Below are positions 50,995-54,867 of a DNA stretch of 64,000 nt, in pieces. Within the stretch, counting starts at the first letter, position 1. Each line of letters starts with the position of its first letter. The stretch comes from an uncultured delta proteobacterium (GTDB lineage: Bacteria > Desulfobacterota > Binatia > UBA9968). The position numbers and the translations under genes are program-made. The stretch spans positions 32,001 to 96,000 of the forward strand of contig CAWFJP010000001.1 in the NCBI GenBank assembly GCA_963816145.1, written 5' to 3'. The notes beneath the pieces are model-generated. The model was not told the DNA's origin. It searched no databases and was given only the letters and a program-made list of their open reading frames with translations.

Positions 50995-52353
50995 TTATCC
51001 TTCCACGCCCAATTTTTCGATTTTGCGATAAAGTGTCGACAAGCTCAGCCCGAGCAACTCCGCGGCGCGGATCTTATCTCCGGCGGTCTTGCCCAGGGTC
51101 CGCTCGATGTGGGTTTTCTCGTAGAGTTCGATCGCCTTGGTCAAATTATCTTCCAAACTATAATCGCCGTCGGCCGCAGCGTAACTATGGCCTGGCAGAT
51201 CCGCCGGCGCGATCCATTCACCGTTGCCGAGAATCATCGCGCGCTCGAGCACGTTGTCGAGCTCGCGAATGTTACCCTTCCAGGGCAACGACATGAGGAT
51301 GCGCATGGTCGCGCTGTCGACGCCCTTGTAAGCGGTTTTCATCTCGATATTATGGCGGTGGATCAGATGTTCGACCAGCGCCGGCAGATCTTCGAGCCGC
51401 TTGCGCAGCGGCGGGATGTCGATTTCAAAAACACAGAGCCGGTAGTAGAGATCTTCGCGAAAGCGCCCCGCCTCCACTTCTGCTTTCAAATCGCGGTTGG
51501 ACGCCGCCAAGATGCGCACGTTGACCTTCACCGGATTGGTCGAGCCCACCGGCAAGACAGTCTTTTCTTCCAGCACGCGCAGAAGTTTCGGTTGCAGGCT
51601 CATCGGCATCTCGCCGATCTCGTCGAGAAAAATCGTCCCGCCGCGGGCGCGCTGAAATAAACCTTCTTGAGAATTGACCGCGCCGGTGAACGAGCCTTTC
51701 ATATGGCCGAACAGTTGGCTTTCCAATAAGTTCTCGGGAATCGCGCTACAGTTGATCGGCAGAAAGACATTGTCCTTGCCCAAGCTATTGGCGTGGATGG
51801 TGCGGGCGACGACTTCCTTGCCGACGCCGCTCTCGCCGCTGATCAAAACAGTGGTCGGCGTCGGCGCCACCTTCATGATCATCTTGACGATTTCCTGCAT
51901 CGCCGGACTGCGCCCGAGCGGCCGGTCGGGAGCAAAATGGCCGCTGACTTCGCGCCGCAAAAGCTGGTTCTCCCAAGCCAGTTGCCGATGGCTCATGAGG
52001 TTTTGAATTTTGCGCAGGACATCGTCGAAGACCAACGGCTTGAGCATGTAATCCTGGGCGCCGGCGCGGATCGCCTCGACGGCGGTTTCCACCGAGGCGT
52101 GGGCGGTCATCAGCACGACCAAGGTCTGCGGCGAGACTTCACGGACATGCTTGAGCACGGCCAAGCCGTCCGCCCCCGGCATCATCAGGTCGGTCAAGAC
52201 CACATCGAGATCGAGCTGATTGATTTTGCTGATCCCCTCTTGCCCGTCGGCGGCCTCATGCACGTCGTAGCCTTCACCGCGGAGCAGCTCAACGAGGCTT
52301 TCGCGAGCGCTCTCCTGATCTTCGACCACAAGTATGTTGCCGTTTGAGCTCAT
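50995..52353 (-). CDS. Sigma-54-dependent response regulator (NtrC/AtoC family)
   Basis: Receiver DLMMP; AAA+ GESGVGKE, GSFTGA, FLDEIGE, FREDLYYRL, WKGNIREL; Fis-type HTH. Confidence 0.95.
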   Translation of the reverse strand: MSSNGNILVVEDQESARESLVELLRGEGYDVHEAADGQEGISKINQLDLDVVLTDLMMPGADGLAVLKHVREVSPQTLVVLMTAHASVETAVEAIRAGAQDYMLKPLVFDDVLRKIQNLMSHRQLAWENQLLRREVSGHFAPDRPLGRSPAMQEIVKMIMKVAPTPTTVLISGESGVGKEVVARTIHANSLGKDNVFLPINCSAIPENLLESQLFGHMKGSFTGAVNSQEGLFQRARGGTIFLDEIGEMPMSLQPKLLRVLEEKTVLPVGSTNPVKVNVRILAASNRDLKAEVEAGRFREDLYYRLCVFEIDIPPLRKRLEDLPALVEHLIHRHNIEMKTAYKGVDSATMRILMSLPWKGNIRELDNVLERAMILGNGEWIAPADLPGHSYAAADGDYSLEDNLTKAIELYEKTHIERTLGKTAGDKIRAAELLGLSLSTLYRKIEKLGVEG

Positions 52354-52364
52354 CGGGTTGCTAT

Positions 52365-52408
52365 TTGCACTTGTGCAAAATCGCCCTTCGCCTTTCGCAA
52401 ATTTGCAA
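52365..52408. promoter_or_regulatory. Putative tandem binding sites immediately upstream of the activator gene
   Basis: TTGCA-CTTG-TGCAA (52365) and TCGCA-AATT-TGCAA (52395), 30 bp apart. Confidence 0.6.
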
Positions 52409-52487
52409 AGAAATAGCCATTCGCCTGCGTGATACTTTCTTGAGCGGGTAATTCAGCAATTAACAGGCCAGCAGGCTTTGGGTCATC

Positions 52488-54867
52488 TCATAAGATGGCC
52501 GGCAATTGGATCGAAAATGTCGTCCCCTTGCCCGCTTGGCTGCTGTAGCCGATGCTGCCGCCATGGGCCGCGAGGATTTGCCGGACAATGGTCATACCGA
52601 TGCCGGTGCCAAAGGATTTCGTTGTAAAGAACGGTTCGAAGATGTCAACCTCGGACGGTATCCCCGCGCCGGTGTCGGTAACTTGCAAAGTCACCGCCGC
52701 CTTGTCGGTCGATCCGGCAAACATGAGACGGCCGCCCGTCGGCATCGCCTCGACGGCGTTCTTAGCTAGGTTCAAGATCACTTGTTTCATCTTGTCGATA
52801 TCGACGCGTACTTTCGGCAGGTCCGGGGCGAATCGCGTTTCGATCTTCACGCCGCGCTCTGCATATTCGGGTATTTCGATCTCGATCGCTTCCGCGACAA
52901 GCTCGGCCAAACTGACAGTTTGAAAATGGTAAGTCTCCTTGCGCGACAGCGAGCGAAAATCTTGCAGCAGCGAATTGAGCCGGGAGATTTCGCTCTTCAG
53001 CCGCATCAATGTCGATGACACCTGGTCGTCCAGCGCCGGCAACTGCTTTCTCAGACGTTGCTCCAGCAGCTGGATTGTCAATGACATGCCGTTCAGTGGA
53101 TTGCCCAGTTCATGGCCAAATTTTGCCGCCATAGTGCCGATGGTCGCCAAGCGCTCGCTCTCCACCGCCAGTTGCTGCAAGTGGCTCTTGTCGGAAATAT
53201 CGCGGATAAATGCGCCGTATTGAACTTCCTCAACCGTGGGAATTTTCGCCACTGACAACTCGATCGGAAAGGTCTCGCCGTTCTTGCGCTTGGCGGTTAC
53301 CGTACGGATACGGCCGATGGCATGAGCTTCGCCGGTCCGTTCGTACCGTTCGATGTAGCCGTCATGCTCCGAGGTATAGGGCTCGGGCATGAGCATGTTG
53401 ACTTTCTGACCGACTACCTCTTCCGGCTGGTAGCCGAAGATCCGTTGCGCCGCTGGATTGAACAGGACGATTCGCGCCTGCCGATCGATGGACACCACCG
53501 CATCTTGGGTCGTTTCGATCAGACTGCGCACCCAGGCTTCGGCGCGCCGCTGCTCGGTCACGTCGCGCATGACCACTTGGACCGCTGTGCCGTCATCCCA
53601 TGCCAGCGGCGCGGCAACGGTCTCGGCATAGACAAACGAACCGTCGAGACGGACTCGGCGTTGAATACTCGGCGGGTTGGGCTGGCCCGACGCCAGCGCG
53701 CGCTCGTAGCGCTGCTCGACTTCGGCTTTTCGTTCCGGTTCGACGAACTCGAACGGCGAGCAGCCGAGTAGATCTTCCGGCGAAGCCGCGCCGAGAATAC
53801 GGGCCGCCGCGTTGTTGACGTAGACGATTTTCTTTTTGAAAACAACCAACACCGCGTCCGGGTTGACCTCGACCAGAGTTTGATAGCGCGACTGCGCCGC
53901 TCTGAGTTCCGCTTCAACGGTTGTGCGGTGCTGGAGTTCCGTCGAAAGCTCGCGGGTTCCCTGCTGCCACGCGCAAGGCCAAGCGCGCATCGCGAAACGA
54001 CACCAGATAGCCGATCGCGCTGAGGAACAGCGCACTGGCGAGCATACCGATATCGAAGATCACCAAGTCGCGGCGGATCGCGCCGTTCCAACCCTTGACC
54101 GGAATTGCGGCAAGCTCCCAGTGCCCGTCCGGCAGATTGATGCGGTGGACAACCGGACTAGAATCGAAGACCATCTGATTACCGAAGAACACGCGTCCGC
54201 GTCCGTCCCTAAGCGCCAGTTGCGTGCGTTGCTGATTTGTTATTCCGACCTCAGCCAAGATCGGCGGTAAGTCGAGCGCTACATTGACGAAACCCCAGAA
54301 ACTATTCTTGGTGAAATATCGCTAATCGAGCGATCGCGCCGAATCCACCTACCAGCAACTCATAGGGGCCGCTAATAACGATCTTACGCGTTTTGATCGC
54401 ACGTGCGACATCTTCGATCGCACTTCAGCATGGGATGGTTGAAGACATTGCGCCCCAGGATCGCCTCGTTGCCGACCCGCGGATAGACGAGCCCAACCAT
54501 CCCGCCGGCGCGAAGAGAAATTACGTACACCAACAACGCTTTCGGTAAGTCGACGGGCAAACGGTACGAAGTTGTTGGCAATCTCCGTCTTTGAGGAAAT
54601 GGTAGCGACCCAGCCGCGCAAAACCGTAAGATCAGATCGAAACGCCGCGTAGGTCGATTGTCAGCGCGTTGCCGTAGGGATCAAGTTCAGCGGCCAGGTC
54701 GCTGCGCAGTTCGATCAGCAGAAGTTGCGATACCAGACATGAACGCCCCACGAGAGTATCGCCAAAAGCGCGACGAAGATGAGAAGCGCAACTGCCAGAG
54801 CCTTGCGCCTCGGCGGCGCCAAGTAGCTGGAAACTGGACCAGTATCAATTGGGATGGAATCCGCCAC
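52488..54867 (-). CDS. CHASE-PAS-PAS histidine kinase with FixL-type heme PAS; N-terminal part broken by several frameshifts
   Basis: HELGNPL H-box, [59 protein letters not shown]/TM fragments in shifting frames 53960-54867. Confidence 0.8.

Follow-up and report, generated by a model that had tools for sequence, protein, structure and literature searches.

A predicted FixL-type heme-PAS kinase beside a sigma-54 activator: a putative low-oxygen switch in an uncultured bacterium of the Binatia lineage

FixL, the textbook direct oxygen sensor, has to our knowledge been described as signalling to FixJ-type regulators. What, then, would a kinase with a FixL-type sensor do beside a sigma-54 activator? 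The question is raised by a 64,000-nucleotide (nt) stretch of DNA from an uncultured delta proteobacterium of the Binatia lineage (assembly GCA_963816145.1, contig CAWFJP010000001.1, positions 32,001 to 96,000; hereafter the window, whose coordinates are used throughout). There, a sensor kinase gene (52488-54035, minus strand) is followed by the gene of an NtrC/AtoC-type sigma-54 activator (50995-52353, minus strand). An earlier note on this DNA had recognised a FixL-type heme-PAS in the kinase and proposed that it serves as the O2 switch of an island of surrounding genes. Our analysis indicates that the wiring is a real, conserved and apparently undescribed combination, all the parts of which are known. 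We consider it reasonably probable, by analogy with characterised systems, that the module is a conserved two-component switch in which a deoxy-heme kinase, active at low O2, would act on the sigma-54 activator and hence on stress genes. In the literature searched, which included few subscription journals, no paper was found to describe the direct pairing of such a FixL-type kinase with a sigma-54 activator.

Pfam resolves the intact kinase frame into PAS, PAS, HisKA and HATPase_c domains. The second PAS domain (PAS2, residues 170-282 counted from a GTG at 54035; 53190-53528, minus strand) is of the FixL heme type. Its sequence (117 residues) aligns without gaps and at full length with the solved domains of Rhizobium meliloti FixL (RmFixL, 1d06; E 2.3e-29) and Bradyrhizobium japonicum FixL (BjFixL, 1dp6; E 7.8e-29). 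By hand count on the alignment with 1d06, about 55 of 114 residues are identical (~48%). After the FixL structures, the next match is E. coli DosP, at E ~1e-14. The 35-residue heme-pocket motif quoted in the earlier note is encoded inside this second PAS domain (53298-53402, minus strand). The alignment to BjFixL which that note had suggested, run here, places the equivalents of both H200 and R220 in register, as the proximal His224 (53364-53366, minus strand) and the distal Arg244 (53304-53306, minus strand). Arg230, His238 and Arg244 lie at +6, +14 and +20 from His224, which is exactly the spacing of BjFixL H200/R206/H214/R220, and the propionate-binding columns (Arg230 for R206, His238 for H214) are likewise in register. 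In addition, the deposited mutant chains R206A (2cmn) and R220A (1y28) pin identical alignment columns. The assignment of a FixL heme-type PAS thus holds, with every pocket residue named earlier present.

The pocket is also kept across the family. Among 120 listed homologs, mapped by pairwise BLAST, the proximal His is conserved in all 120 and the distal Arg in 119. At the position of R206, 90 homologs carry Arg and 28 carry His. At that of H214, Arg is the commonest residue (76 homologs), ahead of His (38) and Gln (6), and RmFixL likewise has an Arg there. The distal Arg gives FixL its O2-specific switching. Overall, PAS2 is predicted from its sequence to be a FixL-type b-heme domain that would bind heme.

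The transmitter of the kinase resembles another class. The first PAS domain (PAS1, 53541-53888), HisKA (52935-53135, with the phospho-accepting candidate His308 at 53112-53114) and HATPase_c (52497-52802) flank PAS2 on the same minus strand. Stop to stop, the frame reaches 54059, and the gene caller's product starts at an ATG at 53990 and has 500 residues. The limit of 53530 drawn in the earlier note truncates the kinase, since the intact frame extends to 54035 and N-terminal remnants to ~54960. With the NCBIfam models, PAS2 alone scores best as FixL (114.9 bits, DosP second), and the DHp-CA core alone scores best as AtoS (176.7 bits), followed by ZraS (164.1 bits) and FixL (106.7 bits). We therefore read the protein as a FixL-type sensor domain placed on a transmitter of the class that normally serves NtrC-family regulators. 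The whole kinase obtains 241.3 bits with the FixL model, below the equivalog cut-off of 850, and nearly as many, 236 bits, with AtoS (cut-off 646). Because of this shortfall and of the higher AtoS and ZraS scores of the core, the kinase is, by sequence scores, no FixL orthologue. The AtoS model itself covers just the first 49 residues of PAS2. We also considered PAS1 as a degenerate heme-PAS and rejected this, as its BLASTP alignment with PAS2 covers no more than the first 41 residues and NCBIfam returns a generic PAS. As a side observation, some relatives carry kinases with two consecutive FixL-type heme-PAS domains (L064/L077, L062/L078 and L063/L080, in genomes G174, G167 and G161; see also L007 and L010); the two matches are 363 nt apart and both have the His and the Arg.

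The neighbouring gene had been described as a complete receiver-AAA+(GSFTGA)-HTH protein. This is confirmed by its Pfam domains (Response_reg, Sigma54_activat at 231.6 bits, AAA_lid_14 and HTH_8) and by its residues, with the acceptor Asp55, Walker A at 173, GSFTGA at 220 and Walker B at 244. Its best NCBIfam model is AtoC, and its scores stay below all the cut-offs compared (AtoC 429 of 714 bits, NtrC 401 of 559, ZraR 388 of 760, NtrX 348 of 600), and its best solved relatives, 4l4u and 1ny5, are titled 'Transcriptional regulator (NtrC family)'. The sigma factor that such a protein would need is encoded once in the genome (7.8 Mb in 31 contigs), as a single Sigma54_DBD match of 212.6 bits in a 505-residue open frame, rpoN. 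Directly past the activator stop lie tandem 9-base-pair (bp) units, GTTCAANNC (~50940-50980, minus strand), present in ~2 to 6 copies among relatives.

The pairing recurs beyond the window. Of 20 places that could be assessed in related genomes, 15 have an activator homolog that begins ~100-300 nt past the end of the kinase gene, so that the proposed wiring of this kinase to a sigma-54 activator is matched by a kept adjacency. The adjacent homologs are 68-95% identical over the part present. These 20 places exclude the window's own and omit L061, L063/L080, L081, L082 and L084, which end too early or have another architecture; one of the 15 (L073) comes from an unpublished genome, G155. An overlapping set of loci shows the pair in ten (L001, L002, L004, L005, L006, L007, L008, L011, L012 and L013), and at L014 the activator homolog lies 3.2 kb off on the opposite strand. 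In close relatives the activator is 92-96% identical and the kinase 70-86%. By their labels, the homologs appear to come from metagenome-assembled genomes (MAGs) of Candidatus Binatia and 'delta proteobacterium'. Outside the lineage, a Calditrichaceae MAG (L019) also pairs a heme-PAS kinase bearing the His and the Arg with an activator.

Four GG-N10-GC (-24/-12) elements, in the correct orientation and 29-103 nt before gene starts, are predicted from their sequence and conservation to be sigma-54 promoters; they form invariant blocks amid poorly conserved spacers. The first, TGGCAAGAAGAATGC (55580-55594, minus strand), precedes by 43 nt a lipoprotein gene (55106-55537, minus strand) that is the first gene of the kinase operon, and its block TTGGCAAG.AG.ATGCG is the same in all 6 loci compared. 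The second, TGGCCTGTTAATTGC (52456-52470, minus strand), occupies the spacer between kinase and activator, 103 nt before the activator ATG; TGGCCT...A.TTGCT is invariant there in 7 of 7 aligned loci and is found by pattern in 9 loci. The third, TGGCACGCTCTATGC (50806-50820, minus strand), is located 49 nt before the start of a SHOCT gene downstream of the activator, with the block GTGGCAC(G/A)CTCTATGCG invariant in 5 of 5 loci in a spacer of 63% mean column identity. The fourth, TGGCATAGCTCCTGC (57893-57907, plus strand), stands 29 nt before a BON gene and is retained by 4 of 4 loci, in which the spacer around it averages 48% column identity. The exact pattern TGGCAC-N5-TTGC has three occurrences in the window where 0.21 would be expected; none of 100 shuffles reaches three.

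Candidate binding sites for the activator lie upstream of two of these promoters. An inverted repeat GGGAA-N16-TTCCC (55683-55708) is found ~90-115 nt upstream of the lipoprotein promoter, where the half-sites TGGGAA and TTCC(C/T)A are invariant in 6 of 6 loci. Another, TTCGCA-N35-TGCGAA (50870-50916), is positioned 50-96 nt upstream of the SHOCT promoter and encloses GGGAATTTTCCC (50881-50892). Conserved GGGAA/TTCCC inverted repeats are hence present 60-115 nt upstream of two promoters (50881-50892 and 55683-55708), and they are the sole remaining lead, a candidate from sequence, for the activator site. The TTCGCA-N25-45-TGCGAA pattern occurs once in the window and is not significant, as 28 of 100 shuffles contain at least one. 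A motif shared by all the promoters was sought and discarded, since 8-mer and 7-mer counts upstream of 12 candidate promoters of the window yielded none in common; k-mer counts across relatives likewise found no upstream motif common to three promoter classes. A separate feature of the activator leader is a perfect palindrome, TTTGCAC-AA-GTGCAAA (52380-52400, minus strand), between the promoter-like element and the ATG. It is partly conserved in relatives, beside a conserved TGCGAAA, and may serve as an operator or form a hairpin in the 5' leader.

Two putative target operons follow from the position of the last two elements. The first, identified by Pfam and synteny (48486-50757, minus strand), encodes a SHOCT membrane protein (50437-50757), an 84-residue open reading frame (ORF; 50144-50398) between it and the first CBS gene, two CBS-pair proteins (49690-50133 and 49157-49693) and a phosphoribosyltransferase (48486-49133), all on the minus strand. 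Where relatives cover this region, 4 of 4 keep the 84-residue ORF, at 67-93% identity. The second (57936-60467, plus strand) lies beyond a PriCT_1 primase-like gene and comprises a BON gene (57936-58709) followed by three CBS-pair genes (58915-59343, 59363-59974 and 60039-60467), all on the plus strand. By analogy, this gene content resembles a dormancy or hypoxia stress set.

Starting from the domain anatomy, the pocket residues, the conserved adjacency and promoters, and rpoN, we infer that heme is bound, which ligand switches the kinase and in which direction, to which protein the phosphoryl group passes and which promoters this activator serves, as follows. The intact kinase would be a protein of ~770-810 residues with the layout TM-CHASE-TM (TM, transmembrane segment)/PAS/heme-PAS/HisKA/HATPase, in which the heme-PAS directly precedes an AtoS/ZraS-like transmitter. 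By analogy with FixL, the kinase would stay off as long as its ferrous heme carries O2, gripped by the distal Arg. As O2 falls, the deoxy kinase would autophosphorylate on His308 and pass the phosphoryl group to Asp55 of the adjacent activator. The latter would oligomerise into a ring on its upstream sites and, driven by ATP, remodel the sigma-54 holoenzyme at the four promoters. The output would be a positive feedback on the activator gene and the kinase operon, together with the switching on of the SHOCT and BON stress operons.

Several observations weigh against this low-O2 switch. At the position of BjFixL Ile215, the window kinase has an Ala (Ala239), as do 119 of the 120 homologs; more distant heme-PAS proteins (loci L016-L039) have Ile or Val. 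This enlarges the distal pocket and could alter affinity or the choice of ligand. Five of the 20 kinase copies have no adjoining activator (L048, which is the window genome's orphan paralog, L069, L075, L079 and L083). The module is also patchy: at E <= 1e-25, the heme-PAS is found in the window's own genome, in 19 of the 36 further genomes sampled from the family and in none of 24 genomes of two sister families. In a phylum-wide sample, 7 of 151 genomes match at the same threshold, a figure that is uninformative. Since the genome encodes ~34 full-scoring sigma-54 activators, assigning the promoters to this one follows from adjacency and co-conservation. No upstream motif is shared by all four promoters, and the GGGAA...TTCCC pattern is matched 4 times in the window where 1.49 matches would be expected; 5 of 100 shuffles reach 4. 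Finally, ~10 single-base indels between 53963 and 54760, seen in an alignment with four relatives, break the N-terminal third of the kinase, and, if this break is real, no GGAGG was noticed before the kinase ATG at 53990.

The broken N-terminus deserves attention because the relatives are intact. Full-length kinases of 767-813 residues carry an N-terminal TM-CHASE-TM module; in the intact homolog P0008, CHASE (PF03924) scores 29.8 bits, above its cut-off of 25. In the window, the TM1-CHASE-TM2 remnant (53963-54960, minus strand) is recovered by tblastn with the 774-residue homolog P0004 (95% identical) and by DNA alignment with the four relatives, and is split over frames -2, -1, -2, -3, -1, -2 and -3. 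The indels are placed at 53963, 54298, 54416, 54418, 54430, 54506, 54513, 54618, 54631 and 54648. One explanation, possible but distinctly the less likely, is that the kinase of this strain is a decaying pseudogene which has lost its CHASE/TM part to the frameshifts. Either a truncated soluble PAS/heme-PAS/kinase would then be made, or nothing, with an orphan paralog driving the activator. Decay would account for the confinement of the indels and of the raised substitution to 53963-54760, as the remaining 1.45 kb is 97% identical to P0004 without a frame break. It would also fit with the nine window genes from the 3' part of the kinase to the activase (41952-54035), which are unbroken relative to the short-read locus L002; this comparison used single segments over the part that the locus contains, and the first eight of the nine genes are fully covered. 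Furthermore, the surviving ORF has the soluble PAS/heme-PAS/kinase layout that we take to be that of BjFixL, and a soluble paralog of 368 residues exists in the genome.

The evidence from other assemblies points the other way. Short-read contigs from four other soil or wetland metagenomes were placed on 53700-55100, where they are 99% or more identical on both flanks of the broken patch. Contigs of all four metagenomes are without the indels listed for them, and at nearly every place the majority of the covering runs do not show the indel; 54618 is exceptional in that run X4 has it, at a depth of 2.99 of 13.3. Within the patch each indel is accompanied by ~2-3 substitutions (the two longest contigs give 19:6 and 28:13), a ratio far more indel-rich than would be expected of natural decay and typical of consensus error. 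Sporadic frame breaks occur in related assemblies too, as the C-terminus of P0004 is shifted and several L004 genes are fragmented. These contigs represent close relatives, and the same strain is not demonstrable because no public run contains over 0.32 of the words sampled from 53700-55100. No RNA data set was listed for this stretch. Given the indel-free contigs, the indel-rich differences and the frame breaks elsewhere, a local consensus error in a highly contiguous assembly is quite probable, and likelier than strain-specific decay.

The ligand may also differ from the one we favour. The main alternative, which we regard as unlikely although it deserves a hearing, keeps the wiring but has the heme-PAS sense nitric oxide (NO), carbon monoxide (CO) or the redox state of its iron instead of O2 occupancy. 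CHASE and the lipoprotein, as a cytochrome, would form a second input, and the module would be a gas/redox integrator. The near-invariant Ala in place of the distal Ile215 and the CHASE domain of the intact homologs would suit such a sensor, and so would the lipoprotein. This 143-residue protein has an LSGC lipobox and a C-terminal CxxCH; the lipobox Cys and the CxxCH are invariant in 6 of 6 sequences, and in 8 related loci its gene immediately precedes that of the CHASE kinase. Its AlphaFold model is a helical bundle (predicted local distance difference test score 75.5), and the top Foldseek rows are rich in cytochromes c'/c556, yet all have E > 0.5. Its atlas neighbours are named cytochrome c or c', one neighbour cluster having PF01322 with a score of 0.90, and several of the cytochrome c' neighbours have been solved with NO or CO bound. 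A class II (c'-like) c-type cytochrome that would partner the periplasmic CHASE domain is accordingly suggested by the model; this stays a lead and not a finding, because there is no Pfam match at E <= 1 and no Foldseek match below E 0.5. The same weakness tells against a gas or redox sensor, as does the conservation, in 119 of 120 homologs, of the distal Arg, the residue to which the O2 specificity of FixL is ascribed. That PAS2 binds no heme, its likeness to FixL being mere ancestry in a generic AtoS-like metabolite sensor, is very improbable, for although the whole kinase scores almost equally as FixL and AtoS, both far under their cut-offs, and its transmitter is AtoS/ZraS-like, the 120 homologs retain all four heme-contact positions at the same spacing, the gapless identity to the RmFixL heme domain is ~48% over 114 residues and the AtoS model ends 49 residues into PAS2.

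Further genes may feed into the O2 switch that we favour. A stand-alone receiver (55719-56126, plus strand) is divergent from the kinase operon, and its start at ATG 55719 is as previously annotated, stop codons being found upstream of this ATG in relatives. It is a paralog of the receiver domain of the activator, to which it is ~40% identical, and its acidic (Mg) pocket is degenerate. It retains the acceptor Asp and the Lys; the second acidic position is an Arg and the conserved Thr is absent, as in 5 of 5 relatives. FixT is described as a single-domain receiver that acts as a negative-feedback regulator of FixL (PMC7078487). Because FixT regulates Caulobacter FixL, the window receiver is, by analogy, most likely a modulator of the kinase (a decoy, sink or inhibitor) and not an output. 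Unlike Caulobacter FixT, it has no cysteines.

The soluble 368-residue paralog of the heme-PAS kinase is encoded on another contig of the same genome (L057 8534-9640, corresponding to G000:C23:78533-79639). Its PAS is 69% identical to PAS2 and no regulator is adjacent; its neighbours are ClpB, DksA-BON, phosphoribosyl pyrophosphate (PRPP) synthetase, NAD synthetase and Usp genes. This orphan may feed the same activator. Two sigma-54-like elements, each with one mismatch, were seen near it, before the PRPP synthetase and DksA-BON genes.

Tentatively, the accessory parts can be assembled into a dual-input, self-amplifying hypoxia or gas switch, in which CHASE with the cytochrome, the heme-PAS, the soluble second kinase and the decoy receiver would converge on one activator. 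That this activator would drive its own operon and a DosR-like dormancy set is an equally tentative part of such a scheme. Mycobacterial DosS/DosT-DosR is a dormancy system with two heme kinases, GAF-bound heme and a NarL-type regulator. The likeness, which is one of analogy, lies in the two heme kinases and in the CBS-pair, Usp and phosphoribosyltransferase-type genes; the differences are that the heme here would reside in a PAS and not in a GAF domain and that the output is a sigma-54 activator rather than a NarL-type one. If the scheme were true, abundant soil bacteria that are still uncultured would possess a sigma-54 equivalent of the dormancy regulon of mycobacteria.

Compared with FixL-FixJ of rhizobia and Caulobacter (BjFixL 1dp6/8js5, RmFixL 1d06), the locus shares the identical spacing of the heme-PAS His/Arg/His/Arg, a heme-PAS directly before the DHp domain with a second, non-heme PAS upstream, and a single-domain receiver nearby, as FixT in Caulobacter (PMC7078487). 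It differs in its partner, since the adjacent regulator is REC-AAA+-HTH_8 where FixJ is REC-LuxR (no search for a FixJ was made elsewhere in the genome), as well as in the AtoS/ZraS-like core, the TM-CHASE-TM module of intact relatives and the replacement of Ile215 by Ala. With AtoS-AtoC, ZraS-ZraR and NtrB-NtrC it has in common the types of transmitter and regulator and a predicted sigma-54 promoter output that includes the activator's own gene. In contrast to these systems, the sensor is a FixL-type heme-PAS, the scores stay under the equivalog cut-offs, and the targets are putative stress genes instead of acetoacetate, zinc or nitrogen genes.

Two systems already link heme to NtrC-family regulators. 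In NtrY-NtrX of Brucella and other alphaproteobacteria, a membrane heme-PAS kinase signals to an NtrC-family regulator, and NtrY is presented as a redox sensor (PMC7240162). The present locus is distinguished by its CHASE layout and by an activator that reaches 348 bits against the 600-bit cut-off of the NtrX model. In Myxococcus xanthus NmpRSTU, heme-based O2 sensing leads to the NtrC-like NmpR and an oxygen-utilisation regulon, and the sensor is a globin-coupled kinase, NmpU, acting via the hybrid kinase NmpS (PMC11841059). Here, by contrast, a heme-PAS kinase lies directly beside the activator. If confirmed, the switch would show how a large uncultured Binatia-type lineage of soils and wetlands senses the loss of O2 and enters a protective state. 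It would also provide a natural FixL variant, with Ala for Ile215, for studies of ligand discrimination, and add an O2-responsive member to the enhancer-binding systems.

The surroundings of the module are not those of an island, as had been thought. The GC content is uniform across the window, and the gene order is conserved in related genomes as PriCT/receiver/lipoprotein/kinase/activator/SHOCT/84-residue ORF/CBS/CBS/phosphoribosyltransferase/CMAS/cytochrome c/BcrAD-type activase. The other side likewise recurs, with BON-CBS-CBS-CBS and ferritin-like genes. A mobile island was considered and rejected given the flat GC and the fact that the PriCT_1 primase-like gene itself belongs to the conserved gene order. 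The neighbourhood is a stretch of chromosome whose synteny is conserved. Within it, relatives also hold two paralogous genes, 60819-61304 and 61906-62748 (both minus strand); the latter has Rubrerythrin and Ferritin-like Pfam matches and the former no Pfam match at E <= 1e-4.

Between the lipoprotein and kinase genes lies a repeat of ~115 bp (54962-55075). It has 41 matches in the window's genome, 77-100% identical, and its contigs reach depths of 700-2000 in four soil or wetland metagenomes. Because of this match count and depth, it looks like an abundant element of the miniature inverted-repeat transposable element type. No tRNA and no Rfam family were found in 50000-58000.

The exact TGGCAC-N5-TTGC promoters of the window are at 14406-14420, 33472-33486 and 38655-38669, all on the plus strand. 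No RtcR-type activator was noticed among the window ORFs scanned. Of the starts behind these promoters, one is 118 nt away and belongs to an alpha-glucan phosphorylase-like gene (DUF3417), and one is 33 nt away and belongs to archease-RtcB. Another of the exact promoters stands 93 nt before a Cys-rich membrane ORF of 106 residues (33579-33899).

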